Assembly (NCBI GenBank): GCA_038231455.1
Contig: JBBRLI010000017.1
Location: 1-64,000 of the forward strand
Source: Vulcanimicrobiales bacterium
GTDB lineage: Bacteria > Vulcanimicrobiota > Vulcanimicrobiia > Vulcanimicrobiales > Vulcanimicrobiaceae
Length of the DNA stretch: 64,000 bases
Direction: 5' to 3'
Below the pieces are notes generated by a model that was not told where the DNA came from, did not search any database, and saw only the letters and a program-made list of their open reading frames with translations. Below, piece after piece: positions 20,462 through 55,639 of the stretch (position 1 is its first letter; each line of letters starts with the position of its first letter). A program made the translations under genes and the position numbers.

Positions 20462-20603
20462 GCGCCTTCGTAAGCGCGTTCTGTGTGAAGCCGGACCCTC
20501 CCCTGATGGACGGCTATCGAGCGCATGGCGCAGGGGGACGGCTTCGTTTGAACGCACTCGCCCTAGTCGAGCGCGTCTCTTTTGCGTGCCATCCGGAGGT
20601 CTT

Positions 20604-21569: not shown

Positions 21570-21582
21570 GTCGCGCGCTCGT

Positions 21583-23465: not shown

Positions 23466-24371
23466 GTGACAAGGGCTTTGGCAGCATTCGCGTTTTTGGT
23501 CGTGGTGTTCGGCACGACATTCGGCGCTATCAAAATTGGAATCGTCGATGGCTGGCCACCGCTCCTTGCGGCCGGCCTTCGGTTTACAATCGCGGGACTG
23601 CTCGTTCTAGGCGTCGCCCGCCTCACGAAGCAAACCAAACCGCTTACGCGAGCCGAGTTCCGCGGAGCGACGGCCGTCGGTCTCACGGTAACGAGCGCAA
23701 CGTTCGGCGCGCTCTACTGCGCCGAGGGCGTCTTGCCCTCAGGCCTTGCAGCAGTGCTGTCTGCGACGAGCCCGCTCTTTGCCGTGGCGCTTGCGATCGC
23801 GGGGGGAAATCGCCGGTTCGAACCCACGATCACGATCGGCCTGATCGTTGCGACGCTCGGCGTCGTTCTCGTCTCAGGTGCCGGCGCAGTAAGCGGCAGG
23901 CCGGCGCTGCTCGCGTCGATTGCGATCGTCGCCTCCGAGATCGCATTCGCGTGGGGCCTCGCACAAACGAAGGGGCTCCGCGCAACGATTCCCGCACTCC
24001 AGCTCGCCGGCACGCAACAGGCCGTCGGCGGCGCGGTGCTTCTCGCGCTCTCGCTTGCCTTCGAACATCACGGCCCCGCGCACATCGACGCGGCGGGACT
24101 CGGCGCGCTGTTCTATCTCATCATCGTCGGCAGCGCGGTCGCGCACACCGTTGCGATTTGGCTTGCCGGCGCGACATCCGCGACATTTGCGTCATCGTGG
24201 ACGTATATCTCGCCGTTTATCGCGCTGCTTTTCGGTGCGGCGTATTTGCACGAAATTCCCGGCACCGCGGCGTGGATCGGAGGCGCTTTCGTCGTTGCCG
24301 GCGCCGTCATCCTCAATCGCGACTTACGGCAAACGCTACGCGGCCCTGCGCTCGTTACGCCGCGTAGGTAA
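23466..24371 (+). CDS. EamA/DMT family transporter
   Basis: About 10 TM helices, PP.L.A.LRF..AG, PSGLAA, Y..P..A...G....E. Confidence 0.9.
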   Translation: MTRALAAFAFLVVVFGTTFGAIKIGIVDGWPPLLAAGLRFTIAGLLVLGVARLTKQTKPLTRAEFRGATAVGLTVTSATFGALYCAEGVLPSGLAAVLSATSPLFAVALAIAGGNRRFEPTITIGLIVATLGVVLVSGAGAVSGRPALLASIAIVASEIAFAWGLAQTKGLRATIPALQLAGTQQAVGGAVLLALSLAFEHHGPAHIDAAGLGALFYLIIVGSAVAHTVAIWLAGATSATFASSWTYISPFIALLFGAAYLHEIPGTAAWIGGAFVVAGAVILNRDLRQTLRGPALVTPRR

Positions 24372-25227
24372 GCTGGACAAGACGCACGCGCTGATCTCCG
24401 AACAGCGTTCCGCAACTCGTGCCGTTGAACGTTCCTGACGTCGGCGGGACGTCCCCATAATCGCGTCCGACCGCGACCACCAGGTAGCGAAAATCGGTTG
24501 GCGCGCAATACGTCGGATCGAGCGAGAGTACCGTCGAACCGCTCGCTGCAGGGATCAGAAACTCAACCCACGCGTGCGTTGCGCCTTCACCGATAAGATG
24601 CCCCGATGCATAGCGCGCGCCGATTCCGCAAGCGCGCGCGAGCGCGATTGCGATATGCGAGAAATCTTGACAGACGCCGCGTCCCATGTGATAAGCCGTC
24701 GAGGCGGTTGTGAAAACGTCGGTGACGTTCTTCGTATAAATCATGTGGCGGTTCACGAAGCGCACGATCGCCTGGGCACAGTCTCGATCGTTTGGATGGA
24801 TGGCGCGAAGGTCGGCGGCGACATCGAGCAGCGCTCGATCTGCGCGGGTCAGGCGTCCGACATCGAACCAGTGACGGTACTGCACATCGGAGACATGCAT
24901 CGCGGAGTTGGTACGGACGATCGTCGATTCAAGGCCGAAGACGACTTCGCGCTCGATCGCCGCGATCGAAAGTGAGGCGACATCGTTGCCGAAATCGTCG
25001 GTCGAAAAGGCCAGCGGGACGTGCGTCGAGGACCAAATCCGGTGCGCGAAGCGCTGCTGATCGAGATGACGCTCCCGCGGCGCGATCATCAATCGATGGT
25101 GGAGGTCGCGAATCGGCGAATCGTACTCATAGCGGAGCGTCTGATCGATGCGGTAGCGAGCGGCGAGGACGCCGCTCCAGTCCACGGGGCGCGGATCGAT
25201 GCCGCTCTCCGAGGCTTCGACCCTCAC
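24355..25227 (-). CDS. transglutaminase-like protein
   Basis: GVCQDFSH, ARYASG, THAWVE, DPT, VAVGRDYGDV.P. Confidence 0.92.
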   Translation of the reverse strand: MRVEASESGIDPRPVDWSGVLAARYRIDQTLRYEYDSPIRDLHHRLMIAPRERHLDQQRFAHRIWSSTHVPLAFSTDDFGNDVASLSIAAIEREVVFGLESTIVRTNSAMHVSDVQYRHWFDVGRLTRADRALLDVAADLRAIHPNDRDCAQAIVRFVNRHMIYTKNVTDVFTTASTAYHMGRGVCQDFSHIAIALARACGIGARYASGHLIGEGATHAWVEFLIPAASGSTVLSLDPTYCAPTDFRYLVVAVGRDYGDVPPTSGTFNGTSCGTLFGDQRVRLVQLTYAA

Positions 25228-26066
25228 GCGACGGGCTCGGCGATCACCGTCATACCATCGAAACGCGCGTTGCCGAAGGTCGTCACCATCGCGACGTCCA
25301 GGGCGTCACGTCCGCGCGCGATAAGCACGCGACCGCGACGCCGCTCGTTGTTCCGCGCATCAAAAGTCCACCAGCGATCGTCCAAATACACCTCGAACCA
25401 CGCCGCGAAGTCCATCTCGGCACCAGTTGAGGGGACGTCGATATCCGGCAAATACCCGAACGCGTAACGCGCCGGAATGTTCAGCGCGCGCGTGAAGGCG
25501 ATCGCCAAGTGTGCGAAATCGCGACAAACGCCGCGTCCCGCAGCAAGCACGTCACTCGAGGTCGTCATCGCCGTGCTGGTGCCGTACCCGAAGGCGATCG
25601 CGGAATGCACGTAATCGCACACGGCTTGGACGCGCTCCCAGCCCGGTACGGTTTGGCCGAACAGTTCCCAGGCACGGTCGGTGATCGCATCGGAGAGACA
25701 GTAGCGGCTCGGCAACGTATACATCAGCGCATCGTCGGGCAGATCTTCGATGAGCACCTGACGAGCCGTCGGTTCGAGGGGATCGAGCCGGTCATCGATC
25801 GTGACATCGGCGTCGTACCGGACGACCGAATCGCCCGGCGGGAGCGTGAGCCGGCGGCACACGTTGCCGTAGACGTCGGTGTAGTCATGGTACGTGCTTG
25901 CCGGCTCGGTCACCCACGTTTCACGGACCAAGCGAGAATCGGGCGAAAGCATCGGACGCACCAGAAAAATTGCCGGTACCGCAGCACTGATCTGATGGCG
26001 AAATTCGCATCCGACGCGGATCGTCAGCATTTGCGTGACCACTTCCATTGTCGAGAGCATTCCCAT
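25224..26066 (-). CDS. transglutaminase-like protein
   Basis: LPSRYC.SD, GVCRDFAH, NIPARY..GYL.DI, MDF.AWFEVYL, GRDA.DVA. Confidence 0.93.
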   Translation of the reverse strand: MGMLSTMEVVTQMLTIRVGCEFRHQISAAVPAIFLVRPMLSPDSRLVRETWVTEPASTYHDYTDVYGNVCRRLTLPPGDSVVRYDADVTIDDRLDPLEPTARQVLIEDLPDDALMYTLPSRYCLSDAITDRAWELFGQTVPGWERVQAVCDYVHSAIAFGYGTSTAMTTSSDVLAAGRGVCRDFAHLAIAFTRALNIPARYAFGYLPDIDVPSTGAEMDFAAWFEVYLDDRWWTFDARNNERRRGRVLIARGRDALDVAMVTTFGNARFDGMTVIAEPVA

Positions 26067-26130
26067 CCAATCCGCAGATACCGTTTCGCCATTTGGCCCG
26101 TCCGTTGGAGCCGGTCCGGCCGCCGGTCGA

Positions 26131-26901
26131 CTATGCGCCTGCGAGATCGGTCGAATCGATCGAGAGAACCTCGTGTCGAACCACGGCCTCGACGCGCTCG
26201 ATCTCGACGATCTGTTCGGTATGGACGTCGACTTCTTCTCTCACCACGGTCCGTTTTGTAAGTTCCACTTCCTCGTGACGCAGCGGAATACGCACGATCT
26301 CGACGCCACCGCCCTCCGCGAGCCGCGTCCGGCGGATCACGAATTCTTCGCGCGTAACTTGCACGTCGAACGTTTTTGTCTCCTTGATGACTTCGGTCGT
26401 AAAGACGATCTCATTCGTCACGACGACATTCTTCTGAACCTCGAGGATCTCCGCACGCAGCAGAATGGTGCGCTCGACGCCGGCGCCGTTTGCAAGTCCG
26501 AGATCGCCTCGCGCGCGCACGAGGATCGTCACGCGTTCAGCTGTGACGTCGCGTCCGGGAAGAACGAGGAGCACATCGTCGCCGAGCGATGCGGCGAAGT
26601 GCCGCGCTCGGTCCTCATCGATACCAAGATCGTTTAGGCGGTCGAAGACGTCACGCCCGTCCGATTTCGGTTCGTCGCGAAGCCCGATGAAGTCGGTGAT
26701 CGCGTTGCGTGGTTTCTCGAACGCATCGATCGCGCGAACGGAATAACTCTCGTGAAGTTCCCGCGCGCGCCGCTCGGAGCGCGTGATAACCGAAAGCGAA
26801 CCGGGAAGGACGCCGGTGTTTACCAGCTCGGCGATCGCCTCTCCGATGGCGTCGTCATCGGCGCGAAAGAGCGCTGCTACGGCATTCTGGGTGCGGTTCA
26901 T
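26131..26901 (-). CDS. YsnF/AvaK (DUF2382) domain protein
   Basis: V.V.REE, IRIPL..EEV...KR.VV.EEV, VR.E.L. Confidence 0.82.
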   Translation of the reverse strand: MNRTQNAVAALFRADDDAIGEAIAELVNTGVLPGSLSVITRSERRARELHESYSVRAIDAFEKPRNAITDFIGLRDEPKSDGRDVFDRLNDLGIDEDRARHFAASLGDDVLLVLPGRDVTAERVTILVRARGDLGLANGAGVERTILLRAEILEVQKNVVVTNEIVFTTEVIKETKTFDVQVTREEFVIRRTRLAEGGGVEIVRIPLRHEEVELTKRTVVREEVDVHTEQIVEIERVEAVVRHEVLSIDSTDLAGA

Positions 26902-26910
26902 GTGTCTCTC

Positions 26911-26948
26911 CAAAAGAAAAAGCTGGGCACGTTATGCCCAGCTTTTCT
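26911..26948 (-). terminator. intrinsic-terminator-like hairpin between the two DUF2382 genes
   Basis: AAAAGCTGGGCA-N5-TGCCCAGCTTTT stem; on the minus strand it is followed by a TCTTTT tract. Confidence 0.7.
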
Positions 26949-26971
26949 CAGAATCTTCGCTTCGCTTCGCG

Positions 26972-27859
26972 CTAATCGCGCTCGCGCGACGTGCGACCGC
27001 CGTCGGTTACCAACCGCTCTTCGCGAACGGTTTCGTTGACACGCTGCGTCTCGGAAATTGCGCGCTTTCCAACGAGCACTTCTTCGGTGACGACCGGCCG
27101 CTTGGTCACGCGAATTTCTTCGCGCGTAAGCGGAATTCGGATGGTCTCGCCCTGGCCGATTGGCGTTTGATCGAGCGATGCGGTCTCCGAGCTGACCGGG
27201 CGCCGCTCGATGAAGAGCTCTTCGCGAATCGTGGGGACATCGATACTCTGCTGCTGGGAGATGACATCTTTGCGGATTTCCGCGACGCCGTTCGGCACGG
27301 CCTCTTTGTCGACGGTCAACCGTTCCGAGCGTAATTGGATGCGTTTTTCTGAGTCGATCTTCTCACCGCGCGCGAAGCGATCCGCGTCCTGATACCCTAA
27401 GATATCCGAACCGCGCGCGCCGCTAAGCGCGGTATCACTGGCGAACGACTCGCCTGCGACGATGTGCCCACCGCAAGCCTCGATGATTTCGGCGGCCAGT
27501 TCGGGATGGTTGTGGCCGTCGACCGTCAGCAAAACGCTATTCGGATCGAGCGAGCGGTCGAGCCGTTGCGCTTCGCTCTCGGCAACACCGTGGTGAACGA
27601 GCGCCGCATGCAGCGAACGCCCGCCGTTTGACTCCGAGCCTTCGCCGCTGAAAAAGCGACCGATCTTTGCGCCGAGCGAATCTTCTTGACCGACCGCAAG
27701 AGTGCCGTCTGACTGCGTCACGCCCAGCCAGATATTATGGAAATGTTCATCGTGAAGTTGTTCGACCGCTTGCTGCGCGTGCGCACGATTCGGAAATGCC
27801 GCTACGAGTGCACGTCCGTCGTAAACTTGATCGCTTGGTGTGGTGTCAATCGAGTCCAT
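26972..27859 (-). CDS. YsnF/AvaK (DUF2382) domain protein
   Basis: IQLRSERL.V.K, IDVP..REEL.IERRPV, IRIPL.REE..V.KRPVV.EEV.VGKR. Confidence 0.9.
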   Translation of the reverse strand: MDSIDTTPSDQVYDGRALVAAFPNRAHAQQAVEQLHDEHFHNIWLGVTQSDGTLAVGQEDSLGAKIGRFFSGEGSESNGGRSLHAALVHHGVAESEAQRLDRSLDPNSVLLTVDGHNHPELAAEIIEACGGHIVAGESFASDTALSGARGSDILGYQDADRFARGEKIDSEKRIQLRSERLTVDKEAVPNGVAEIRKDVISQQQSIDVPTIREELFIERRPVSSETASLDQTPIGQGETIRIPLTREEIRVTKRPVVTEEVLVGKRAISETQRVNETVREERLVTDGGRTSRERD

Positions 27860-27978
27860 TGTCGCTCATTCCATAAAAGCAAAAAGTGAGGTGCGCGGAA
27901 CGTACCCCACTTTTTGCATTCACCTCGCAAGCGTGCCGCAGCACGCACGGCCGGCGATCAAGTCTGAGCGTACACGCC

Positions 27979-28491
27979 CTACTGTTTCACGACGATCGCG
28001 CCGCGCATTATTTTTTGGTGATACGCGCAAGCGTAGTAAAACGTACCGGGGGTCTTCGCCGTGAAGATCTTGTTTGAAGCGGAATGCGGTCGCACGTTCC
28101 CGGTGCTCCACTCACTTGCGCCGATGTCGCTCCGATGTTCTTTCGTCGGATCGCCCTGAAAACGGTAATCATCTGGAATCTGTTGTCCGCCAAACGAGTA
28201 GCCTGTCGCTGTGTGCTCGTTGTCGTCGGTGTTCGTAAAGCGAATCCGGTCACCGACGTGCACCTCGGTAACAATCGGATCGAAGCCGGCAAGTTTTCCT
28301 TGATCGGGGCGCTTGTGCGGCTTGAAGTCGATATCCATGTTGATCACTTGCAAGCGATGTTTTGCGGGCTTGCCGGCTGCTTTCATGTGGCCGCCTTGAT
28401 CCGCTTTGAGGGAATCGGCCAGCACGGGGAACCCGCTAGCGGTTATGGCAAAAACCGCTGCGAGGGCAGCAAATGAGGTACGAAGGCGCAT
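27979..28491 (-). CDS. exported cupredoxin-domain protein
   Basis: Signal peptide; VGD.I.F.N.D..EH; PGTFYYACAYHQKIMRG.IVV. Confidence 0.85.
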   Translation of the reverse strand: MRLRTSFAALAAVFAITASGFPVLADSLKADQGGHMKAAGKPAKHRLQVINMDIDFKPHKRPDQGKLAGFDPIVTEVHVGDRIRFTNTDDNEHTATGYSFGGQQIPDDYRFQGDPTKEHRSDIGASEWSTGNVRPHSASNKIFTAKTPGTFYYACAYHQKIMRGAIVVKQ

Positions 28492-28630
28492 ATCTGAAGC
28501 TCCAATCGAAGTGATGATCGCTGCATATACCCGCCAGGCGCACGGCTCACTCCGAGGCCGAGCCGTGATGCCCGGCACGGCGATTGCTCTTTGCGCGTGA
28601 GACGATGCGCAGGCCAAAGCAGAAACGGGG

Positions 28631-29107
28631 ATCATCATCGGCCAGCACGCTCTGCGCACCCAATCCCGGCGCGGTCTCATCGTTGCGATCCTTGCTACGG
28701 TCGCAATCGCCGCGATCACAAACAGCGCGCTTCAGTTCTTCGGCCTGAGTCAGCCGGCCGGCGAACGCTGGCCGGCGTTTGCGCCGCGCGGGCCGGTCAT
28801 CGGGATCGTCTGGATCGCGCTCTTTGCCGGAATGGGAGCCGCGCTTTGGCTAGCAACGAGCAGGCGCGCGATCGTCGGACTCATCGCCCTGTGTCTTGCG
28901 TATCCGTTTTACACGCACGTCATCGGCAATCACGCAACCGAACTCATCGGGAACCTCATCACCTTCGTTTATTGCGCGTGGCTCATCACCGTTGTACGCA
29001 GCGAATCGCGCCTCGCCGCCCTGCTGATCGCAGCCGTCGCTGCGTGGATCATTTTTGCCACGGCACTCGTGATCGGTCTCGTCCAACTCAACGGCTGGGC
29101 CACCTAA
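28631..29107 (+). CDS. tspO: TspO/MBR family membrane protein (start codon non-canonical or uncertain)
   Basis: WPAFAPRGPVIGIVWIALF..MG.A.WL TspO motif lies in frame upstream of the track ATG (28832). There is no ATG/GTG/TTG between the TGA at 28598 and 28832. Confidence 0.7.
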   Translation: MIIGQHALRTQSRRGLIVAILATVAIAAITNSALQFFGLSQPAGERWPAFAPRGPVIGIVWIALFAGMGAALWLATSRRAIVGLIALCLAYPFYTHVIGNHATELIGNLITFVYCAWLITVVRSESRLAALLIAAVAAWIIFATALVIGLVQLNGWAT

Positions 29108-44466: not shown

Positions 44467-44792
44467 GAGCGCTCCTTACCGTGATGTGTTGCAAGCATGG
44501 TGCCCTTAAGCTCGCGCAATCTTCACATGCAAACGGCAAACCGTTTGCAGAAAACCGGTCTTCTTTGTCCGTAGGAGCATGGGCTTGCTTGAACGTAGAA
44601 AACAAGTCCGTACATCACAGTACTGATGCTCGCAGGCGACACCGCTGAAGAAATTTCCGGTATTCAAGCACGGAAAAGAAGCACGGACTCCCTGGTTAGC
44701 TCACCGACTAAGCATGCGCTCTATGCTAAAGTCGCGTTCCGTGCACGCCGTAAAACCTAATAGCGGGATGACTATCTCCGCAGGAGTTACGG

Positions 44793-46292
44793 ATGACGAC
44801 TTCGTTTGTACGGATCGCGTGTTCTGTCGTATTCACGACACTGAGTTTTTCCGCGTGCGGCGGCGGCGGCGGCGGATCGATGCCCGCGCCCGTCGTATCG
44901 CAACCGCAACAGGCACCAATCGATGCAACGATCGGCTCGCCGACATCCGGCTCGATTCAGAAGATGACGTACAACGCACCGTACGGCGGCCAAGGCGCGG
45001 GGAAATCGATCTATCTGCTCGGTGCAAACGGCTGCGGCGACATTGCCGTGAATCCCGGAACATCCAGTGCCTTTCCAGCGAACGTCGCAAATGGGACGCT
45101 CAAATCGGGTACGCTCGTTTCCGTTACGGGAACGGCGACGAATTATCAAGGCGTCGTCATCAGCGTCGGCTGTCCGACCGGTGGCATCGTTGCGATGTCC
45201 GTAACGATCGGCGGCGCAAGCGCGCCGCCGGCGATCGCAACGCCACAGCCCGCAGGTGCGAGCGTTTCATGCGTTACGCTTGACGCAAAGTACAATCGCC
45301 AAGATCTCCCCGCGTGTTTCACGCCGTATAGCAATGCGAGTCCCTGGAATCAGGCATTACCCGCCGCGCCGCAAGCACTTGCGACTTCGCAAACGATCAT
45401 GGACTTTCTCTTCTCCTCCGGCTTCAGTACCGGCATGAACTCGCCGCGGATCGGCAGCCCGTTTTACGGCGATGTCGATTATAATTTTCCGTACTACTTC
45501 GCGACGGCGAGTGACCCGCTCGTGACCTTGCACTGCTTCGAGCCGTGGGGACGATGCGGTTTCGAAGGTATGCAGATTCACATCCCCGCAAACGCGAAGC
45601 CCGCGATGGGCTGCTGCGACCATCACGTTACCGTCATCGACGTCGCAACGGCAGACGAATACGATTTCTACGAAGCGCCGACGAACGTAGCCGCAAACGG
45701 CGGCACGTACAGCGTCGGCTGGGGCGGCAAAACGAATTTGCGCACGGGCACCGGCTTCGGCGCTGGCAGCGGAACGGCAGCAGGGTCGAGTCAACTCGGC
45801 GGCGTCGTGCGCGTCTCCGAATTTCAAAGCGGCGTCATCCACCACGCGCTCTCGCTCACGACGTCATGCTCCCTGACGACGGCGCCGGTCTACCCGGCCA
45901 CCTCGAACTCCGTCCAGCCGTGCCCCGGCGGTGCCGTCGGCTTGACGGCCCCACTCGGTTCGCGACTCTGGCTCGACCTCGATGCAACGGCAATCGGCGC
46001 CCTACCGGTCTCAAATGCAACGAAAATCGTGCTAAACGCGCTGCATACCTACGGCGGCTTTGTGACCGACACCAACGGCAATACCGCAAGTCTCGCTGTG
46101 AACTCGATCCCCGAAGCGCCAACTTCGTTCGTTGCATCAGGCGGAAGCGATGCGGTCGGGGCCTGGTATGCCGCCAACGTCCCGGCGTATCCGTGGCGCG
46201 CCAACACCTACCAGCTCGACATCTGGAGCGCGGTCGACTGGCAGCATCACCTCCACGTCCTCGATCCGTGCGTCACGCGATCCAACTGCTGA
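44793..46292 (+). CDS. Cys-rich lipoprotein of unknown function
   Basis: AGGAG RBS; lipobox FSAC followed by poly-Gly; C-terminal globular domain PY...SPWN, DHH, EYDF, GVVR..E...G.I.HAL, AL..YG..V.D. Confidence 0.8.
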   Translation: MTTSFVRIACSVVFTTLSFSACGGGGGGSMPAPVVSQPQQAPIDATIGSPTSGSIQKMTYNAPYGGQGAGKSIYLLGANGCGDIAVNPGTSSAFPANVANGTLKSGTLVSVTGTATNYQGVVISVGCPTGGIVAMSVTIGGASAPPAIATPQPAGASVSCVTLDAKYNRQDLPACFTPYSNASPWNQALPAAPQALATSQTIMDFLFSSGFSTGMNSPRIGSPFYGDVDYNFPYYFATASDPLVTLHCFEPWGRCGFEGMQIHIPANAKPAMGCCDHHVTVIDVATADEYDFYEAPTNVAANGGTYSVGWGGKTNLRTGTGFGAGSGTAAGSSQLGGVVRVSEFQSGVIHHALSLTTSCSLTTAPVYPATSNSVQPCPGGAVGLTAPLGSRLWLDLDATAIGALPVSNATKIVLNALHTYGGFVTDTNGNTASLAVNSIPEAPTSFVASGGSDAVGAWYAANVPAYPWRANTYQLDIWSAVDWQHHLHVLDPCVTRSNC

Positions 46293-46411
46293 TCGCCGAA
46301 GACGCTTTGGTCTCTCGAGTGCCGGGAAGTGCGCGCTAGGAAGCGAACGAACCGTTTGCTTCCCCCGCTTACTCGGGGTCGATTGCGCCATTGCTGTTTC
46401 GGGAGATATCC

Positions 46412-46747
46412 GTGGCTTACCGTCCGTTCTACGACTACCAACTCAAGCTGCAGAACGATCCGCTCGAACTCGCGAAGTTTCGTCGAGGCGGTGAAACGGC
46501 TTTGGAATCGATGCGCGAACACGGTTTACCGGATGAACTCTTGTCATTGCTGCTCTCGGAGAGCCGTGAAGATCGAGCGAAACTTTTTCGTTACGCCGAG
46601 ACCGAACTAGCACAGACCGGCAAAGCGACGACATTCGCGGAAATGTTAATCACCTTTACGGATCCGGAACCCGAGGGCGAGCCGCAGCCGGAACCGGAAC
46701 CGGCAACGCCCAAACCCGGCGAGCCGGGTACAAAACGCTCCGGATAA
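46412..46747 (+). CDS. split-borosin precursor (SonA-like helical-bundle/BBD leader + core + acidic Pro-rich tail)
   Basis: GGGAGA RBS + GTG. FYDYQLKLQNDP..L..FRR....MREHGL.DE...LLLS matches the LigA-like borosin-binding bundle. It ends 3 bp before the methyltransferase. Confidence 0.82.
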   Translation: MAYRPFYDYQLKLQNDPLELAKFRRGGETALESMREHGLPDELLSLLLSESREDRAKLFRYAETELAQTGKATTFAEMLITFTDPEPEGEPQPEPEPATPKPGEPGTKRSG

Positions 46748-46750
46748 GCT

Positions 46751-47536
46751 ATGCCACGACCCGGCTCACTGACGGCCGTTGGATGCGGTATCCTAGCTCC
46801 CGCTCAAATCACGAACGAAGCACTCGTCCACCTCGCTGGGGCGGATTGCGTGCTCTCGCTCATTGCCGATCCCGTAGCTGCTGCTTTTCTTGCGAGCGTC
46901 AACCCGCAGACGCGCTCGCTCGCGGGCCACTACGGCGTGGGGAAGCCGCGTATCCAAACATATGAAGACATCACAGCCGACATCGTCGAGACAGTCCGTT
47001 CGGGTCAACGCGTTTGCGCGGTAACCTACGGTCATCCCGGCATCTACGCGTACCCGCTGCATGAGTCGATTCGTCGCGTTCGAGCGCTCGGACTCAATGC
47101 GCAAATGGTACCCGGGGTCTCAGCCGACGCTTGCCTTTTTGCAGAGCTCGGCATCGATCCCGCACGATCGGGAACGACCAGTTTTGAGGCGACCGATTTC
47201 CTGATTTACGACCGCCATATCGATCTGACAACGACGCTGATTCTCTGGCAAATAGGCGTTATTGGCGAACGCGCTTATAAAACGGATTCCGGACCGTGGA
47301 ATACGGATGGCGTCCACGCATTGGCCGAGCGTTTATGCGAGGCGTATCCCGCCGACCACGAGGTCACCGTCTATCAAGCGGCGCGGTTCATTACCGAGCG
47401 ATCGACGATCGCACGGGTGCCACTTCATGCGCTCGCGACGGCGCCGATCACGCCGCTATCGACGTTGGTCGTTCCGCCAGCCGCGGCACGCATTCTCAAT
47501 CGGGCAGCCTATCAACGCTTGACCGCCTCGGCATGA
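46751..47536 (+). CDS. borosin-type peptide alpha-N-methyltransferase (SonM/OphMA-like, TP_methylase fold)
   Basis: GSL..VG.GI, Y61-GVGKP-R67-IQT-Y71, Y93GHPG, PGVSA.ACLFA.LGIDP...G, EATDFL, LILWQIG, Y.A, STL.VPP. Confidence 0.92.
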   Translation: MPRPGSLTAVGCGILAPAQITNEALVHLAGADCVLSLIADPVAAAFLASVNPQTRSLAGHYGVGKPRIQTYEDITADIVETVRSGQRVCAVTYGHPGIYAYPLHESIRRVRALGLNAQMVPGVSADACLFAELGIDPARSGTTSFEATDFLIYDRHIDLTTTLILWQIGVIGERAYKTDSGPWNTDGVHALAERLCEAYPADHEVTVYQAARFITERSTIARVPLHALATAPITPLSTLVVPPAAARILNRAAYQRLTASA

Positions 47537-50301
47537 TCGCAAGCGTCCGATGCCCGAACCTTGTCGGTCGCGCGAGCGAGACGGCCATCCTCAGAGAACG
47601 CTTTACTCAAGCCGAACACGGGAGCGGCTCGATCACGTTCGTCTCCGGCGATGCCGGGATCGGAAAAACGCGGCTGATCGGCGATTTTTTACAATCAGCC
47701 GAGCTTCGAAAGATGCCTCGCGCGATCGGCTACTGCATGGAGCACGCGCGCTCGCCGCTCGCGCCGCTCTCCGACATCGTCTGGTCGCTCACCGACGAGC
47801 ATCCCGAGCTCCTTGCTGACGCACCGATCACGCGGCGCGTGCTCGCCCATCTCGTTCCCGGTCTTGCGACCGATAACGATTCATCGATCGCCCCCTCGGA
47901 TGCGCGAGCGCAATACGCGGCACTAGCCGATCTCTTACGACGAGCTGCCGAAAAGCGCCCGGCGATCGTCGTCATCGAAGACGCGCAGTGGGCCGACCTC
48001 ACGACGATCGACTTCCTGACGTTTTTCGCAAGTCGTGTCGGATCGACGCGCGTTATGCTGATCGTCATGCATCGTCCCCTTTCGGACCGGCCCGATCCGC
48101 TCGCGGATTCGTTCGCGCGGATGCGCGCGAATCACAACGTTCACGCAATGAACGTCCGACCCCTCATGATTGGTGAGATGAGAAAGCTTTCCGAACTCGC
48201 TCTGGGTGAGAATGAAAAGCTCTCCGACGAACTGCTCCGAAAAGTCCACGAACTTGCCGACGGTAATCCGCTTTTCGCAGAAGAGCTCTTAGGGACCGCG
48301 CTCAGTTCACCGGCGGGCACCGTCTCGCTGCCCGCATCGCTGCGCACGCTGTTTCTCGATCGGTTCAGCGGCCTCGATCCGGACGATCGCGAAACGTTGA
48401 CGGAAGCTGCCGTGATGGGACGCTCGTTCGATCCGGCGTTTCTTGCACGACTCACCGGAAAGCCGATCGAACGCGTCTTACGGACGCTGCGCACGGCGCG
48501 AGAACTCCAGCTTGTCGACGACGAAGGTGAAGGCATCGTCTTCCGGCACGCACTCGTGCGAGAGGCGCTCTATGCCAGCTTGCTGGGCGCGGAAGCTCGA
48601 CGTCTGCACCATCGGATGGCCGAAGAACTGGAGACACTACCCGAAACGTTGAGCCGGACGTTTGCGCTTGCCTATCACTGGTGGTCGGCGCGTGAGCCCG
48701 TGAAAGCATTCGAGGCAAATTCCATCGCGGGCGAGCGCGCGATGAAGCATTTGGCGACGACTGACGCAGCGACATTCTTCGAACGCGCCCTCTCATGTGC
48801 ACCTGATGAGGGCGATACTCGAGCGCAGATCGAGTGGCAACTCGGAGCCGCGTCCTTTGCCAGCGGTTTTCCGGAGCGAGCCACCGCTGCGTACAAACGT
48901 GCACTCGACTACTACACGAATCTTGGCGATATGCGAAAAATCGCGGAAGTATCGCTCGAACTTGGGCGTAATAATGCGGCTCTCGGTCGAGGTGACGAGT
49001 CTCTCGATTGGCGCATGCGTGCCGTCGAAGCGACCGAGAATGTCGATGATGACGCGTTTCGGTATACCGTTTACGCACATCTCGCGTTCTGGCTTTCTAT
49101 TCGCGGTGAAACGGAACTAGCCCATGACTACGTTACGCGTGCTCGCGCGACCGGGGTTATGGCATCGCTTGCCGCGCGACTCGACCTCGGCGAAGCCGAA
49201 GTGATCTCGCATTTTCTTACCGGTGACATGGATCAAGGCGAAACGTGCTTTCGCGAACTCACTGCGGTCATCAGCGCCGAGGGTACGGCGACGCAGATCG
49301 TACGCCTTTACGCAAACTATGGCTTTCTGAACGGCGTTATCGGCAACATCAAAACGGCCCTTGAAGCGGTGGAGTATGCACGCAGTCGCGCTGATGAATC
49401 GCTCGGAATGGGATACCAGATCAGCCTACTTGCAACGCTCGGAATGCTTTCCGTCAAGGTGGGTAAAATTTCCGAGGGACGTGCGCATTTCAAGAGTGCC
49501 GAACAGCTCGTGGCAACACTCGGACAGACCTCGACGCGCTGGACGTCGACCCTAACGCAACTCGGTCTGGAATTAGCGATGCGTTTCGCGGGTTCTGCAA
49601 CATTCGAACGCACGACCGAACTCTCGATTCTCGAAGAGGCGATCAATTCGCGCGAGCACATTTGGATGTCCGAGATCTCCGCAGCTTTTGCCGGTGCTGC
49701 CGCGGCACGCGGTGAGATCGACCGGGCTCGCGCGATCGTAGCGCGCGTGCTTGCCTTGTACGCGCAAGCGCCGATCGTTCCGGCGCTCGCGCTCGTCGCG
49801 GCAGAATTCGGTACGACGGAAGACACCGCTCGCGCGACGTCACTCTTCGACCTGTGGCCCGCTGGCATCCGACCCATTCGCGCGTATCGAGCGCTCTTCG
49901 ATGCGTACATCGCCCGCCGCGCGGGGCGCGCGTATATCGGCTTGGCGACGGATGCAGCGCAACGATTCGAAGCTCTCACGCTCCCGATCTTAGCCGCACG
50001 GGCGTATGAAGTTGCCGGGGATGCCGCACGCGCGCTTGCGATCTACGAAGCTCACGATTGCACGGGTGATATCGAACGCATTCGAAACGGCGGAGCGCCA
50101 AAACGGCTGCGCGAACAGTCGCTCAGCGCACGCGAACTCGAAGTTCTCCCGCACGTCCTGCGCGGCCGTTCGAATGCGGAAATTGCCGGCGTCCTCAACA
50201 TCAGCGAACGCACGGTCGAAAGTCACGTTCGCTCGATCCTCTCCAAACGCGGCGTGAAATCGCGGCTTCAACTGGTGAGTGACGACACCGGCGGCGGCTA
50301 G
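47533..50301 (+). CDS. large ATP-binding LuxR-family regulator (AAA_16/STAND + TPR + LuxR HTH), copy 1
   Basis: LVGR..E, Walker A GDAGIGKT, Walker B VIEDAQWAD, GNPLFAEE, FRHAL.RE, C-terminal LSARELEV..GRSNAEIA..LNISERTVESHV; ATGA overlap with the methyltransferase. Confidence 0.93.
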   Translation: MIASVRCPNLVGRASETAILRERFTQAEHGSGSITFVSGDAGIGKTRLIGDFLQSAELRKMPRAIGYCMEHARSPLAPLSDIVWSLTDEHPELLADAPITRRVLAHLVPGLATDNDSSIAPSDARAQYAALADLLRRAAEKRPAIVVIEDAQWADLTTIDFLTFFASRVGSTRVMLIVMHRPLSDRPDPLADSFARMRANHNVHAMNVRPLMIGEMRKLSELALGENEKLSDELLRKVHELADGNPLFAEELLGTALSSPAGTVSLPASLRTLFLDRFSGLDPDDRETLTEAAVMGRSFDPAFLARLTGKPIERVLRTLRTARELQLVDDEGEGIVFRHALVREALYASLLGAEARRLHHRMAEELETLPETLSRTFALAYHWWSAREPVKAFEANSIAGERAMKHLATTDAATFFERALSCAPDEGDTRAQIEWQLGAASFASGFPERATAAYKRALDYYTNLGDMRKIAEVSLELGRNNAALGRGDESLDWRMRAVEATENVDDDAFRYTVYAHLAFWLSIRGETELAHDYVTRARATGVMASLAARLDLGEAEVISHFLTGDMDQGETCFRELTAVISAEGTATQIVRLYANYGFLNGVIGNIKTALEAVEYARSRADESLGMGYQISLLATLGMLSVKVGKISEGRAHFKSAEQLVATLGQTSTRWTSTLTQLGLELAMRFAGSATFERTTELSILEEAINSREHIWMSEISAAFAGAAAARGEIDRARAIVARVLALYAQAPIVPALALVAAEFGTTEDTARATSLFDLWPAGIRPIRAYRALFDAYIARRAGRAYIGLATDAAQRFEALTLPILAARAYEVAGDAARALAIYEAHDCTGDIERIRNGGAPKRLREQSLSARELEVLPHVLRGRSNAEIAGVLNISERTVESHVRSILSKRGVKSRLQLVSDDTGGG

Positions 50302-50305
50302 CGCG

Positions 50306-53059
50306 ATGATTGCAAGTATTCGCTGCCCCCGGCTCGTCGGGCGAGCTGAGGAAACGGCGCTTCTGCGCGCGCGCCTCGGCGAAGCGGATCTCGGCGTCGG
50401 CTCCCTCACGTTCATCTCCGGTGATGCGGGTATTGGGAAGACGCGGCTGATCGCCGATTTTCTCCAACTGCCGGAAGTTCGGCGTATCCCGCGCGCGATC
50501 GGATACTGCCTCGAACACGCTCGAGCACCGCTAGCGCCGCTTGCCGATATCGCGTGGTCGCTCATCGACGAGCACCCGACGATTCTCGATGACGCCCCGA
50601 GGACGCGAGGCCTCCTCGCACCGCTCGTCCCGAACATCGCCCCCGATGAGAACCTCGCCGGCGGAAGCAAAGACGTGCGTTCGCAATACGCGGGGATTAT
50701 CGATCTCTTCCGACGCGTTGGCGAGATTCGTCCGCTCATCATCGTGATCGAAGATGCGGAGTGGGCGGATCTCTCGACCGCCGAATTCATGAGCTTCTTC
50801 GCCACGCGACTCGCTCGAATGCGCGTGGTCATGCTCGTGCTCCACCGGCAGGTTCGTTCCCGCGAGGGAACGCTCTCGACCACCCTTGCACGCGTTCGCT
50901 CGTATCGTAACGTGCACGCGATCAACCTCGAGCCGCTCTCGATCGGCGAGATGCGCCAATTCTCAACCCTTGCACTCGGCTCGATCTCGATGATGTCCGC
51001 AACGACGCTCGAACGCGTTCACGAACTTGCCGACGGCAATCCGCTCTTTGCCGAAGAGTTGCTCGGAACGGCGCTGGGGTCGTCGGGTGACGCGCTGCCG
51101 GATTCGCTGCGCTCGCTTTTTCTCGACCGTATCCGCGACATCGATGCCGAGGACCGCGAGACGCTCACCGAAGCGGCGGTCATGGGCCGATCGTTCGACC
51201 CGACATTCCTCGCGCACCTCACCGGGCGCCCGATCGAACGGATCTTACGAACCCTCCGTCGCGCGCGCGAATTGCAGATCGTCGACGACGACGGTTCGGA
51301 GGTCGTCTTCCGGCACGCGCTCATTCGCGAGACCCTCTACGCGAGTCTGATGCGTGAAGAAGCACGCCGCCTGCACCGGCGGATGGCGGAGGAGCTCGAA
51401 CGTCTCCCTGAGTCGCTCTCACGCATTGCCGCGCTTGCCTATCACTGGTGGGCTGCGCGGGATTCGCGGAAATCATTCGATGCAAACGTCCTCGCGGGCG
51501 ATCGTGCTGCGGCCCAATTTACGACCGCCGACGCCGTGATCTTCTACAAGCGCGCTCTGGCAAGCACGCACATCGCGGAGCCGACGCGAGCCGAAATCGA
51601 GTGCAAGCTGGGCCTCGCGGCATTCAGCAGCGGGTTTATCGCCGATGCACGCGCGGCCTATACGAGCGCTCTCCAGACGTATCGAACGCTTGGCGACCTG
51701 CGGGCGATCGCACTTGCGTCGATGGAGCTCGGGCGGCAATACGCGGCACTTGCGGACGGCGAAGGGTCGATTGCGTGGCGGACGGCGGCAATCGCGGCAG
51801 CCGAAGAATACGGGCAAGATCCGCAGCTGCTACGCACGACGATTTCGCACGCGGCATTTGCGCTCGCGACGCAGGGAGACCTGAGGCGTGCTCAAGCGCA
51901 AATCGCGCGAGCTGAGAAGATCGCATGCGACGATTCAATCGGCGCCCGTATCGATCTCGACGACGCCGCAATTACGTGCGAGGTCTTCACCGGACGGCAC
52001 GCCGAGGCCGAAAAGCGTTTTGCGGCCTTGAGCATCGCCGCTGACACCGCAGCGACATTGCAGCAAATCGTTCGGATCTATGGCAACAGCGCGTCGATCA
52101 ATGAGATCTGTGGCGAAATCGATCTTGCTTGCGAGCGCGGGAGAGTCGCCGTCGATCGATGCGAACGCGGAATTACGCCCGGATACCATGTCATCGTCTT
52201 AGGCGTCTTCGGAATGGCGCTTATGAAAGCCGGCGACCTGCGCGGATCACACCATCAACTCGAGTACGCGCAATCGATTGTCGATGGATACGGGCAACAC
52301 GCAACGCGGTTTACCGCACCACTGACGTCGCTTGGGATCCGTTTAGGCATTCACCTCGGCAATATGTCGATGATCGATCGATTTTGTGTGCCGGACGTGC
52401 TCGAAAACGCGTTTAGCTCGCGCGAGCATGTCTGGAGCGCGAATGTCATCGAAGCGTTTACTCGCGCGGCGCTCGCGCGGGAAGATCCCGAGACGGCGCG
52501 AGCGATCTTGACCCGGTCCGCGCGAGCGCATTCGGATGCGCCGATGACTCCCGACGTTTTTCTCCTCATGGTCGAGTTTGCGCCGCAAGACGAAGCGGAA
52601 CGGGCGCTGGAACTCTTTGCTCGCTGGCCCGATCGACGCCGCGCGATCGGCGCCTATGCGTTACTCGGAGAAGCGATCCGCTTGCGTCGAATCGGCAACG
52701 CGCACGCAAGTCTTGCACGTGATGCCGCCGCACAATTCCAAGCGCTACGAATGCCGCTCCTCGCCGCTCGCGCACTCGAGGTCTGCGGTGAATCCGCGCA
52801 AGCGGTTCAGATCTACGAGCGCCTTGGTGCGCAAGGTGACGTCGCTCGATTGACCCGGCGCAAAAACAGCGCGCCAGACGGTCGGCTGAGCGCCCGTGAG
52901 CGCGAAGTGCTCCCCTATGTCGAGCAGGGGCGTTCGAATGCGGAGATCGCGCAGATCCTCAACATCAGCGAACGGACGGTGGAAAGCCACGTCCGTTCGG
53001 TTCTTGCCAAGCGCGGCGTGAAGTCGCGCTTGCAGTTGATGCACTTAGCTGAGGGCTGA
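50306..53059 (+). CDS. large ATP-binding LuxR-family regulator, copy 2 (tandem paralog)
   Basis: Same motif set as copy 1 (MIAS.RCP.LVGR, GDAGIGKT, VIEDAEWAD, LuxR HTH); starts 4 bp after the copy 1 stop. Confidence 0.93.
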   Translation: MIASIRCPRLVGRAEETALLRARLGEADLGVGSLTFISGDAGIGKTRLIADFLQLPEVRRIPRAIGYCLEHARAPLAPLADIAWSLIDEHPTILDDAPRTRGLLAPLVPNIAPDENLAGGSKDVRSQYAGIIDLFRRVGEIRPLIIVIEDAEWADLSTAEFMSFFATRLARMRVVMLVLHRQVRSREGTLSTTLARVRSYRNVHAINLEPLSIGEMRQFSTLALGSISMMSATTLERVHELADGNPLFAEELLGTALGSSGDALPDSLRSLFLDRIRDIDAEDRETLTEAAVMGRSFDPTFLAHLTGRPIERILRTLRRARELQIVDDDGSEVVFRHALIRETLYASLMREEARRLHRRMAEELERLPESLSRIAALAYHWWAARDSRKSFDANVLAGDRAAAQFTTADAVIFYKRALASTHIAEPTRAEIECKLGLAAFSSGFIADARAAYTSALQTYRTLGDLRAIALASMELGRQYAALADGEGSIAWRTAAIAAAEEYGQDPQLLRTTISHAAFALATQGDLRRAQAQIARAEKIACDDSIGARIDLDDAAITCEVFTGRHAEAEKRFAALSIAADTAATLQQIVRIYGNSASINEICGEIDLACERGRVAVDRCERGITPGYHVIVLGVFGMALMKAGDLRGSHHQLEYAQSIVDGYGQHATRFTAPLTSLGIRLGIHLGNMSMIDRFCVPDVLENAFSSREHVWSANVIEAFTRAALAREDPETARAILTRSARAHSDAPMTPDVFLLMVEFAPQDEAERALELFARWPDRRRAIGAYALLGEAIRLRRIGNAHASLARDAAAQFQALRMPLLAARALEVCGESAQAVQIYERLGAQGDVARLTRRKNSAPDGRLSAREREVLPYVEQGRSNAEIAQILNISERTVESHVRSVLAKRGVKSRLQLMHLAEG

Positions 53060-53827
53060 GGTCGTGAAGAGCTCGTTCATGATCGGCGAGGGGTCCGTGC
53101 CGTACTCCGTGCGTACCGCGGTGCGGTAGCGACGGAACTGATCGACGGCCGCGGCCGTTTTGCCTAGACGCTGAAGCGCTTTGATCGCAAGCTCGCAGGC
53201 TTGTTCGCAGCACGGATCATCACCGAGCAGCGTGCGTGCGATGTCGGCAGCTTGCACGGCGTCGCCGCGTTGCAGCAGATGTTCACCCACTTCGATTGCA
53301 AGGTCGAAGCCCATCGTTGCGAGGCGCGCTTCGATTGAAGAGAAGTACGCGCTCTCGAAGAGTGGTTGGGTACGGCGGGTGCGCAGCCGGTCCGCGATCT
53401 CCGCAAGATCCAGCAGTTGTAGCTTGGAGAGCGACTCGAAGCGACCGCGGGCGGCGATAATCTTCGCTTCCATCTCAACGAGGTCGACGCGGACGTGGTC
53501 GCCCAAGCGGTAGCCGTCGCGATCGCGCAGGATCGTCGTGTAGCCGAGCTTCCGGCGCACGCGGTGGATGTACACCTTGACGGCGACTTCGCCGCTGGGC
53601 GGTGCGCCATCACCGTAGATGATGTCGAGCAGGCGCGTCGCCGAGCCCGGCTGACGGTCGAGGGCCAGCGCGGCCACGATCGCGAGTTCGCGCTTGGTGA
53701 GCAGCATGTCGCGGTCGCCAAGGGTCACCCGGCGGTCCAGGAGGGAGACGCGCACGGTCCGCTCGGGTAGCGGCGCAGCGGCTTGGGAGAGGTCGATATC
53801 GGCGGTGATCGTTTGCGTCATCATCAT
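53045..53827 (-). CDS. SARP/DnrI-like regulator (winged helix + BTAD)
   Basis: LTKRE, VKVYIHRVRRKLG...I.....GYRL, VD..E, DP..E.A....I.AL...G....A...F.....E.G..PS. Confidence 0.88.
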   Translation of the reverse strand: MMMTQTITADIDLSQAAAPLPERTVRVSLLDRRVTLGDRDMLLTKRELAIVAALALDRQPGSATRLLDIIYGDGAPPSGEVAVKVYIHRVRRKLGYTTILRDRDGYRLGDHVRVDLVEMEAKIIAARGRFESLSKLQLLDLAEIADRLRTRRTQPLFESAYFSSIEARLATMGFDLAIEVGEHLLQRGDAVQAADIARTLLGDDPCCEQACELAIKALQRLGKTAAAVDQFRRYRTAVRTEYGTDPSPIMNELFTTSALS

Positions 53828-54316: not shown

Positions 54317-55639
54317 CTAGACCGGCGCGATCGATTCGGCTGTCGGGTGCTCGGGGTCGAATCGCGCGCGATTTTGGGTGCGCTCGTACGTGCGCTGAGC
54401 GGCGATGCCGTCGGGCAGAATCGCGTCGATCGCATCGTCGACGGTGACGATGCCGAGCATGCGACCACGATCGTCGACGACGGGAACGGCGTGGAGATCG
54501 TAGCGCGCTACGATCGCTGCAACATCGGCCGCCGGAGTGCCGGCGCGCACGCTGACGATCTGGGTGTTCATGAGTTTCTCCACGAACGCCGTCGGCAATC
54601 CAACTAAGAGCGAGCGCAGCGAGACGACCCCGACCAGCCGCTCGTTCTCGTCAATCACGTAGAGATAGTAGATAAACTCTTTGGCGCCGACGCGGTCGCG
54701 TAGCGACTTGATCGCGGCGACGGTGGTCACGTGCCCGGCGATCGTGACGAACTCGGTCGACATCATGCTGCCGGCGGTTCCGGGAACGTGTGCGACGAGA
54801 TCGCGCAATTCTTGCGCATCGGCCGGTTCCATGTGCGCGAGCAGCGTCTGTTGCTGCTGGTCCGAGAGTTCGCCGAGTAAGTCGGCAGCATCGCTGCTCT
54901 GCATGCCACCGATGATCTCCGCTGCGCGCACGGCGGTCATCGATGCGATCAGCTCTTGCTGCTTCGAGCGGTCGAGGTATTCGAGGGTGTCGGCGGCAGT
55001 TTCGTCGTCGAGCGCGTGCATCACGTTCGAGGCGTCATCGCTCGAGAGCGTGTTGATGATGTCGGCGAGTTCGCTTGGATGCATCTGCGGCACCGCCGCC
55101 TCGCCTTCCGGTAAGCGTACGGTGAGCGCTTTGCCGCTCATCACCACGATGTTGTCCCACGAGACGAGCACGCGCGGCAGCCGATCGAGCATCGGGGCGG
55201 GGATGGTCTTTCCCACCATGCGGCGCACGAGACCGACCACGCCGACGTCGGCTGCGACGATGCGTAAGCCGCCGGCCATATCGCGCACGACTTCCAGATC
55301 TCCAATTCGGACGCTCACGCGCTTGTCGATATCGGCAATCGAGCGGTCGAGTAAATTCTTCACAACATAGAGTGCGAGCGATTCATCGGGCAGCGTGCTG
55401 CTCGGCGCGACCGCAAGACGCACGTCGCCTTCACCCGTAATATCGAGAACATCCGAGACCGGCGCAAAACGGCGTTCGCTCCCGACCTCGACGACGATGC
55501 CGGTGATAAAGGGAAATTTGTCGTTTGGCCGTTCCACCACCACGTCGACGATTTTGCCAAGCGGAATGCGCAGATCGCCACCTTCGACGAAGACGGCGTG
55601 ATTGATGATCTGCGAGAGAAAGCGGTCGGTGAAATTCAC
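54317..55639 (-). CDS. MgtE cytosolic-domain protein (PRC-like + MgtE_N + CBS pair), no transmembrane domain
   Basis: MHP.ELADII, D.AADLL, TAG.MM.TE, YLYV.D...L.GVVSLR, YDL.A.PVVD...GIVTVDD. Confidence 0.85.
   Translation of the reverse strand: MNFTDRFLSQIINHAVFVEGGDLRIPLGKIVDVVVERPNDKFPFITGIVVEVGSERRFAPVSDVLDITGEGDVRLAVAPSSTLPDESLALYVVKNLLDRSIADIDKRVSVRIGDLEVVRDMAGGLRIVAADVGVVGLVRRMVGKTIPAPMLDRLPRVLVSWDNIVVMSGKALTVRLPEGEAAVPQMHPSELADIINTLSSDDASNVMHALDDETAADTLEYLDRSKQQELIASMTAVRAAEIIGGMQSSDAADLLGELSDQQQQTLLAHMEPADAQELRDLVAHVPGTAGSMMSTEFVTIAGHVTTVAAIKSLRDRVGAKEFIYYLYVIDENERLVGVVSLRSLLVGLPTAFVEKLMNTQIVSVRAGTPAADVAAIVARYDLHAVPVVDDRGRMLGIVTVDDAIDAILPDGIAAQRTYERTQNRARFDPEHPTAESIAPV

Follow-up and report, generated by a model that had tools for sequence, protein, structure and literature searches.

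What are borosins for in bacteria, and why should the genes for one stand directly in front of two transcriptional regulators? The bacterial borosin clusters catalogued so far number over 1,500, and for shewanellamide A, the only bacterial product named in the literature consulted, neither antibiotic activity nor a role is known, its authors calling for work on the biological role(s) (PMC10549244). The question is raised by positions 46412-53827 of a 64,000-nucleotide stretch of DNA (hereafter the window; G+C content about 61%) from an uncultured soil or sediment bacterium of the Eremiobacterota (= Vulcanimicrobiota), represented by a metagenome-assembled genome (MAG) of 3.7 Mb in 106 contigs with a completeness of 93.7%. 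This locus contains a predicted split borosin pair, i.e. a precursor gene (preA) and a separate methyltransferase gene, followed by two genes for regulators of the LAL type. From comparisons of gene neighbourhoods we conclude that the triad of precursor, methyltransferase and LAL is a unit that has been kept in evolution, and that its adjacency is not incidental. The genes of the locus are:

46412-46747, plus strand: preA, 111 amino acids, SonA-like borosin precursor
46751-47536, plus strand: predicted borosin-type peptide backbone alpha-N-methyltransferase, SonM-like, 261 amino acids
47533-50301, plus strand: LAL1, STAND regulator, 922 amino acids
50306-53059, plus strand: LAL2, paralog of LAL1, 917 amino acids
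53045-53827, minus strand: small SARP-type regulator (BTAD plus weak winged helix-turn-helix), convergent with LAL2

The preA gene starts with GTG, preceded by GGGAGA, and the same ribosome-binding site and start codon occur in the congener G001 (locus L035), whose contig is syntenic with the window and was used for comparison. The methyltransferase gene begins 3 bp beyond the end of preA, its own stop is overlapped by the LAL1 start as ATGA, and 4 bp separate the TAG stop of LAL1 from the start of LAL2; the SARP gene overlaps LAL2 by 15 bp. The four genes from preA to LAL2 are probably transcribed as one unit, with probable translational coupling. A Pfam scan detected no exporter or protease genes in the operon, in agreement with the original prediction, which had been made from the letters alone and whose coordinates, junctions and motifs held for all five genes.

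The split borosin pair

The methyltransferase is, by homology, a borosin alpha-N-methyltransferase of the SonM/OphMA type, for which methylation of the peptide backbone is predicted, since the borosin enzymes in the PDB were matched (phmmer) with E values between 1e-52 and 3e-35 (SonM 1.2e-52, OphMA 5.4e-43, dbOphM 2.3e-42, MroMA 2.7e-35), whereas tetrapyrrole methylases gave 3e-3 or weaker, the best being precorrin-2 C20-methyltransferase (2.8e-3). The Pfam match is TP_methylase (PF00590, 3.2e-19), and the NCBIfam tetrapyrrole models reach at most 38 bits against cut-offs of at least 163. The sequence contains Y61, R67, Y71, Y93GHPG, PGVSA and LWQIG, with Y61, K65, R67, Y71 and Y93-G97 invariant in 15 of 15 aligned relatives. 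Residues Y58, R67, Y71 and Y93 of SonM, which align with Y61, R67, Y71 and Y93 of the window enzyme, were found important by Miller et al. (PMC8429565, available part of the text).

As a single sequence, PreA had no match in Pfam, NCBIfam or the PDB (0 PDB matches at E≤10). A small open reading frame (ORF) of 80-126 amino acids is present directly upstream of the methyltransferase gene in 13 of 16 related loci, two of the three exceptions being cut at that point, and a profile built from 13 ORFs of this kind (that of the window included) matched seven distinct SonA sequences with E values of 2.2e-7 to 2.8e-7, the next match after SonA following at 4.6e-3. In an AlphaFold2 (AF2) model of PreA, with a predicted local distance difference test (pLDDT) score of 77, helices at residues 5-15, 17-25, 28-36, 41-48 and 52-68 are followed by a disordered tail, in agreement with the published borosin-binding domain, described as a five-helix bundle in PMC8429565. 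Foldseek placed SonA first for this model, but with an E value of 2.7 and with no match at E≤1e-3, the top ranks being nearly all borosin entries. A VIA comparison with SonA (8t1t_D) gave a Z of 8.2 and a root-mean-square deviation of 1.8 Å over 55 residues, which is only moderate, a Z below about 13 being weak for helical bundles. An N-terminal signal peptide is absent, since the N-terminus is a folded helical domain in the model. The tail of PreA carries the hydrophobic stretch FAEMLITF, a candidate for the methylated core, and ends in a Pro/Glu-rich acidic part; among the relatives of PreA the core sequences vary widely. Thus, preA and the methyltransferase gene constitute a split borosin pair, as had been predicted, and one of Type IV (SonA/SonM-like), the enzyme grouping with SonM and OphMA and not with tetrapyrrole methylases, and the precursor profile matching SonA.

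Precursor tails of another kind were seen in genus g40 (loci L026, L030, L028, L031 and L032), where they are Pro/Gly-rich, of the form YGPxPxHVNPPxTW.. or YGPPRPxxWPxGTGG.., and are without an obvious hydrophobic core, unlike SonA. A divergent upstream gene of the S9 prolyl-oligopeptidase family occurs in six loci.

According to the part of the son literature that was accessible, the son cluster of Shewanella oneidensis MR-1 encodes SonM (SO1478), SonA (SO1479), a GGDEF protein (SO1480) and a cation efflux pump (PMC10549244); its product is shewanellamide A, and PDB entries 7LTC and 7LTE belong to this system. As in son, the window locus combines a stand-alone borosin methyltransferase with a separate precursor that has an N-terminal helical borosin-binding domain, lacks a protease or tailoring enzyme, and encodes a TPR-bearing signalling protein alongside (PMC10549244; 10.1101/2021.12.24.474128, both in part). 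Unlike in son, where the partner is a membrane-bound TPR-GGDEF cyclase, the window locus has as partner two copies of a cytoplasmic STAND NTPase-TPR-LuxR transcription factor and lacks an efflux pump; the precursor gene comes first, then the enzyme gene and then the regulator genes, with junctions that overlap, and the host belongs to the Eremiobacterota. The precursor also is longer (111 versus about 70 amino acids), with an acidic Pro/Glu tail. The sam cluster of Shewanella amazonensis (SamM1, SamA1, SamP/shewasin A) provides a second comparison: in SamA1, according to the available part of the source, a peptide in which E, D and P abound is released, and the methylated Phe52 stands in front of it (10.1101/2024.01.09.574750). 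Both precursors have a borosin-binding domain and a hydrophobic site followed by a highly anionic C-terminal stretch, the counterpart in the window being FAEMLITF and then DPEPEGEPQPEPEP, a likeness judged by eye only. In contrast to sam, no pepsin-like peptidase or acetyltransferase is encoded near the window locus, which has the LAL partner instead.

The LAL regulators and their linkage to the pair

Judged from their domains, LAL1 and LAL2 are LAL/MalT-type regulators that combine a STAND NTPase, a TPR part and a LuxR-type helix-turn-helix (HTH), and ligand-dependent activation is predicted for them. Pfam recognizes AAA_16 (4.1e-21), TPR_12 (2.3e-7) and GerE (1.3e-16) in LAL1, and AAA_16 (4.8e-18) and GerE (2e-18) in LAL2, the TPR_12 match being confined to LAL1. 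The Walker motifs are intact in both proteins (GDAGIGKT; VVIEDAQWAD / IVIEDAEWAD), and G42, G44, K45 and D150 are invariant across 31 LALs. In LAL1 a P-loop NTPase is followed by a helical arm with a winged helix, by a TPR-like solenoid (about 350-850) and by a LuxR/GerE HTH (862-915), and its AF2 model (pLDDT 89.6) shows a helical-hairpin solenoid of about 500 residues (352-851). The profile of the LAL family matched MalT domain III (1hz4, 1.4e-9) and peptide-binding TPRs such as LGN/Pins (9e-17), and a Foldseek search with the LAL1 model ranked the STAND-TPR protein 6mfv first (2.2e-12) and Avs3 second (5.5e-9), MalT (8bob_C) being found at 5.8e-7. The succession of N-terminal P-loop NTPase, helical arm, TPR-like solenoid and C-terminal LuxR HTH is that of MalT of E. 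coli (PDB 1HZ4, 8BOB); from characterized LALs the window proteins differ by low identity and by their position in an operon with the precursor and modifying enzyme of a peptide that is made by ribosomes and modified after translation (a RiPP). LAL1 and LAL2 are 52% identical. When identity is taken per bin of 60 residues, the NTPase and arm reach 47-78% and the HTH 59-65%, while the sensor is the most diverged domain (25-47%, with residues 481-780 at 25-37%).

Methyltransferase-positive genomes were found 69 times among 401 of the phylum, with 48 of 296 of the window's own family (f1), 15 of 30 of a sister family (f3) and 5 of 16 of f20; these phylum tallies (69/401, and a further 18/61) take in the unpublished genomes G059 and G347, and no other result does. 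The search with LAL1 covered 66 methyltransferase-positive published genomes; 71 weaker matches lie beyond the matches listed, and distant LALs escape a LAL1 query. In all 13 methyltransferase-positive published genomes of f3, a full-length LAL gene lies directly downstream of the methyltransferase gene on the same strand, and this adjacent LAL is the best LAL1 match of each genome. The spacing from the methyltransferase gene to the LAL match is 53-153 bp in 12 of the 13, and in G291 a precursor stands in between (L123; methyltransferase, precursor, LAL). Mapping with hidden Markov models and BLAST bears out the adjacency, and the order preA-methyltransferase-LAL is found in the other f3 loci with a mapped precursor ORF; L027 ends at the methyltransferase, and the precursor profile had no match in L029. 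In L122 (G357) two precursor-like ORFs were seen, both weak profile matches (1.7e-4 and 4.1e-4).

When the ORFs of the 13 f3 loci were clustered, only LAL (13/13) and the methyltransferase (12/13; 13/13 by profile) were common to all; no exporter, protease or other enzyme was shared, and other neighbours were shared at genus level only. In 14 loci of non-adjacent LAL paralogs, precursor and methyltransferase are absent. The non-incidental linkage that had been proposed for the pair and the LALs is thus borne out by 13 of 13 f3 genomes, with nothing but these genes in common, and by the congener. There the order is LAL-preA-methyltransferase-LAL-SARP, and in front of the first LAL lies a 61-codon remnant of a methyltransferase N-terminus (L035:6587-6769), followed by the 26-nt palindrome ctctacgatgcgatcgcatcgtagag, which suggests that the triad as a whole was once duplicated in tandem and that this part is the decayed half. 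A distant LAL of 873 amino acids (AAA_16 and GerE) is found in another Eremiobacterota MAG, divergent and 80 bp from the precursor (L105:7003-10759). Other f1 loci have a protein of 570-655 amino acids downstream of the methyltransferase, with no family or with weak PDZ/GAF matches (L036:10824-12593, L037:10546-12513, L020:10393-12108, L077:10786-12546); it may represent a different class of partner.

The history of the linkage can be read in two ways. A quick IQ-TREE tree puts the 13 LALs of f3 in one clade and the four of g1 in another, both with an SH-like approximate likelihood ratio test (SH-aLRT) value of 100, and a single origin of the linkage may be compatible with this tree. A FastTree tree with 13 additional Eremiobacterota and other LALs, whose support values should be interpreted with care, groups g1 with unlinked f1 LALs (sister L219) and f3 with another unlinked LAL, from which at least two changes of linkage state follow. 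Taken together, the trees point either to repeated recruitment or to an old linkage with repeated loss.

Outside the phylum the situation is different. A query with the single methyltransferase sequence found no relative; with an alignment as query, the locus scan gave the best 80 loci from 185,579 species genomes, to which come 80 metagenome loci, 160 in total. A co-directional LAL occurs in two of the best 80 species-genome loci, L035 (G001) and L099 (G357, f3), and a full co-directional LAL in none of the 80 metagenome loci, 36 of which have at least 1.5 kb downstream of the methyltransferase. Conversely, a methyltransferase lies upstream of two of the best 80 LAL1 relatives, both from f3. 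Since only 2 of 160 methyltransferase loci have a co-directional LAL and both belong to the Eremiobacterota, the LAL triad is specific to a clade of that phylum, and the recurrence of the linkage in homologous neighbourhoods, as expected from the original prediction, stood inside this clade and failed outside it.

Partners of a related kind do occur elsewhere. The LAL-NTPase profile matched in 23 of the 160 loci, and 15 of the 160 have one layout in which a STAND protein of about 1,000-1,300 amino acids is convergent with the methyltransferase and ends at its 3' end. Pfam was run on two of these 15, both from Gaiellales-like actinobacteria: L055:10731-13958(-) encodes Zn-ribbon, Guanylate_cyc, AAA_16 and TPR domains, and L075:10674-14528(-) Trans_reg_C, BTAD, Guanylate_cyc, AAA_16 and TPR. 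A Chloroflexia-like group comprises seven loci by HTH placement, with a Pfam check on the metagenome locus L144 (5356-13166), where a protein of 1,118 amino acids with Pkinase, NB-ARC/NACHT, TPR_MalT and GerE domains is followed directly downstream by an 83-amino-acid LigA-like precursor, a class I methyltransferase, a borosin methyltransferase and a UbiA prenyltransferase. Furthermore, a TPR-GGDEF protein is the partner in 56% of split borosin clusters, according to the part of the survey that was available (10.1101/2021.12.24.474128). The Gaiellales-like and Chloroflexia-like STAND/TPR partners are non-orthologous to the LALs and differ from them in output. A partner with cyclase output cannot be a pathway-specific transcription factor, and the common element is the TPR-type sensor.

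Divergence of the module and its surroundings

In comparison with G001, the flanks of the module are about 84% identical at the DNA level, positions 44612-46761 have no match, and 46762-52886 are 67-70% identical and alignable in part; nucleotide homology resumes at 52887, within the 3' end of LAL2 that encodes the HTH. The protein identities to G001 are:

preA: 46%
methyltransferase: 67%
LAL1: 59%
LAL2: 52%
SARP: 93%
27 flank ORFs: median 88% (some perhaps shadow ORFs)

In g40 of f3, the pair L026/L031 has a similar contrast (methyltransferase 50%, LAL 49%, syntenic flanks mostly 67-84%), and the pair L031/L028 has little contrast between module and flank. The pattern of a hypervariable module is suggestive only, because other stretches of the window also are variable, with no or poor nucleotide match to G001 (10714-14048, 20446-22129 and 23473-28666). 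The best metagenome match of the methyltransferase is only 57% identical, and a series of within-genus alleles therefore could not be built.

The SARP gene behaves like the flank. Its product has a BTAD domain (4.6e-11, 43.7 bits, cut-off 22.1) and a Trans_reg_C match of 23.6 bits, under the cut-off of 26.2. The original prediction had this BTAD/SARP gene wired into the borosin system, a claim that had to be given up: because of its flank-like conservation (93% versus 46-67% for the module) and its absence from nine sister-family loci (tblastn), the gene probably belongs to the conserved flank. Further downstream are genes for MsrB, an MgtE_N/CBS protein, an S10-like peptidase and a solute-binding protein. 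The second of these, at window positions 54317-55639 (minus strand), has 440 amino acids with MgtE_N and CBS matches, but none was reported for the membrane transport domain of MgtE.

Two further features lie upstream of the operon:

44793-46292, plus strand: lipoprotein of no known family, 499 amino acids, lipobox LSFSAC, upstream neighbour of preA
46339-46363, strand not assigned: inverted repeat GGAAGCGAACG-aac-CGTTTGCTTCC, between the lipoprotein gene and preA (gap of 119 bp)

For the lipoprotein, Pfam gave no family and the Atlas unnamed clusters only. It is situated in the variable upstream region and is absent from the G001 locus. Homologs with 28-30% identity were detected by tblastn in two of the 160 loci, both Gaiellales-like (L055:14328-15329 and L102:15539-17698), at 3.5-6 kb from the borosin methyltransferase, which is perhaps due to chance. 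The inverted repeat has 11-nt arms that are 91% complementary, occurs as a single copy in the window and was matched by 0 of 100 shuffles; it is not kept upstream of preA in G001 or in eight sister-family loci. Possibly it serves a LuxR-type dimer as operator; alternatively, it could form the hairpin at which the upstream lipoprotein gene ends. Scans for promoters and terminators gave one site against 2.2 expected and three against 10.4 expected, respectively.

What the regulators may sense

We tentatively prefer the reading, which we regard as quite possible, that the methylated product of PreA is the input sensed by one or both LALs, so that the operon would constitute a self-contained module of a peptide signal and its receptor-regulator. 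The methyltransferase would dock on the five-helix domain of PreA and methylate amides of the backbone where the tail has its short hydrophobic stretch. PreA modified in this way, or else a piece released from it by a protease encoded elsewhere, would then serve as input for the TPR-like LAL sensor, upon which the LAL(s) would switch via the NTPase module and act on promoters with a LuxR box, probably including that of their own operon. Two LALs that differ most in their sensors could respond to different forms of the signal or to different amounts of it. This ligand reading is preferred because of the varied outputs of the TPR partners, the lack of any other conserved gene, the order of the operon and the pattern of divergence. 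A complex prediction of PreA with LAL1 residues 380-855 scored 0.03 against a mark of 0.32, which speaks neither for nor against binding.

In ComQXPA, agrBDCA and RRNPP systems, a precursor, a modifier and a cognate receptor-regulator are encoded in one locus, and the sensor of RRNPP proteins is of the TPR type. The locus resembles such operons by analogy only, in this one-locus logic and in its strong divergence within conserved flanks; it is unlike them in that PreA has no signal peptide, an exporter and a histidine kinase are lacking, the receptor is a STAND NTPase and the modification is backbone N-methylation. Membership of the RRNPP family itself, in which a pro-peptide is secreted by means of a signal sequence, re-imported and bound by an HTH-TPR receptor free of an NTPase, was rejected, as the N-terminus of PreA is a folded helical domain and the presumed receptor carries both a STAND NTPase and an HTH at its C-terminus.

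Several observations weigh against a role of the peptide as ligand. LAL regulators commonly are cluster-situated activators with other ligands, which explains the linkage in the Eremiobacterota equally well, and the sensor domains of STAND proteins usually diverge rapidly. The upstream regions of preA in 10 loci have no palindrome or 8-mer in common. Most borosin pairs outside the Eremiobacterota are without a STAND neighbour (137 of 160 loci), and in the rest of f1 no LAL1-like gene adjoins the methyltransferase among the matches listed. L219, the nearest LAL relative beyond the genus (39% identity), lacks a methyltransferase within 3 kb. Finally, in 12 triads the identities of the PreA domain, the methyltransferase, the LAL NTPase and the LAL sensor are all correlated (r 0.79-0.94); a correlation as uniform as this matches plain linkage, and there is therefore no specific signal of co-variation.

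It is possible, to a degree that has to be taken seriously, that LAL1 and LAL2, like the single LAL of the sister family, are pathway-specific activators of preA and the methyltransferase gene which respond to an unrelated cue, and that the methylated peptide, as an end product, has some other role, such as an exported metabolite or a stress- or surface-related function. The LAL architecture is typical of such activators, the LAL genes are probably co-transcribed with the genes to be controlled, a vertically inherited linkage would also be expected of a dedicated activator, and LALs are numerous, as many as 13 LAL1-like matches occurring in one genome. On the other hand, a regulator that is encoded downstream in its own target operon requires basal read-through, and genes for export, immunity or tailoring are missing from the conserved unit. 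Moreover, the recurrent STAND/TPR partner in other phyla has a nucleotide cyclase or a GGDEF domain as output, and a protein of this kind cannot act as a pathway-specific transcription factor (10.1101/2021.12.24.474128). Alternatively, the switch could operate at the protein level, with full-length PreA or the PreA-methyltransferase complex acting as a stoichiometric partner of LAL, either as anti-activator or as co-activator, without release of a peptide and with methylation setting the affinity. The lack of a protease in the operon and in the conserved unit, the matched amounts suggested by translational coupling, and the folded domain plus tail in the model of PreA are all in line with this mechanism, which we nevertheless consider improbable, since processed peptides have been detected in cell extracts of Shewanella according to the accessible parts of two studies (PMC10549244; 10.1101/2024.01.09.574750).

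That the borosin pair and the LALs are functionally unlinked, and merely adjacent or syntenic, appears very unlikely. Most borosin loci elsewhere do occur without LAL, and the f3 linkage possibly reflects one ancestral event that was inherited, but the link persists in 13 of 13 loci whose other neighbours differ, the gaps between the genes are tight or overlapping, and there are at least three LAL arrangements in the phylum as well as unrelated STAND/TPR partners in two other groups. The second rank of Avs3 in the Foldseek search and the hypervariability of the locus could recall an anti-phage STAND system of the Avs type, with the borosin pair as part of the effector or sensor. We give this very little credence: PADLOC returned only HTH-level matches for the LALs (CARF3 models, residues 821-905) and nothing for the other four proteins, and the output domain is a DNA-binding HTH without a nuclease or other effector.

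The ligand reading can be extended beyond this phylum, for which we would claim only a rather doubtful standing. Split borosins would then be the ligand half of widespread modules of a peptide signal and a TPR receptor, and not antibiotics, and the output would depend on the lineage: STAND proteins with a LuxR HTH in the Eremiobacterota, STAND adenylate/guanylate cyclases in the Gaiellales, kinase-STAND-LuxR proteins in Chloroflexia-like bacteria, and TPR-GGDEF cyclases in Proteobacteria. The divergent alleles seen at a single locus in a genus would represent specificity types that resemble pherotypes.

With its borosin pair the locus adds a new member to a class already known, and the linkage of borosins to GGDEF proteins has been published before. 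The combination with LAL regulators and the wider STAND/TPR theme seem new, as no description was found in the literature searched. No paper was found that links borosins with LuxR-type regulators, with the proviso that the Pfam tables of 10.1101/2021.12.24.474128, a source available in part, may list GerE or AAA_16; nor, at the level of titles and abstracts, was one found on signalling by bacterial borosins. Should the LALs be pathway activators only, the locus would add one more ordinary member to a known class of RiPPs, from a phylum that has been little studied. A triad of peptide, enzyme and transcription factor provides a direct handle on what bacterial borosins are for. If backbone N-methylated peptides are indeed signals, they would constitute a new chemical class in bacterial peptide signalling, and the LAL family would have its first type of ligand outside sugar and antibiotic pathways.

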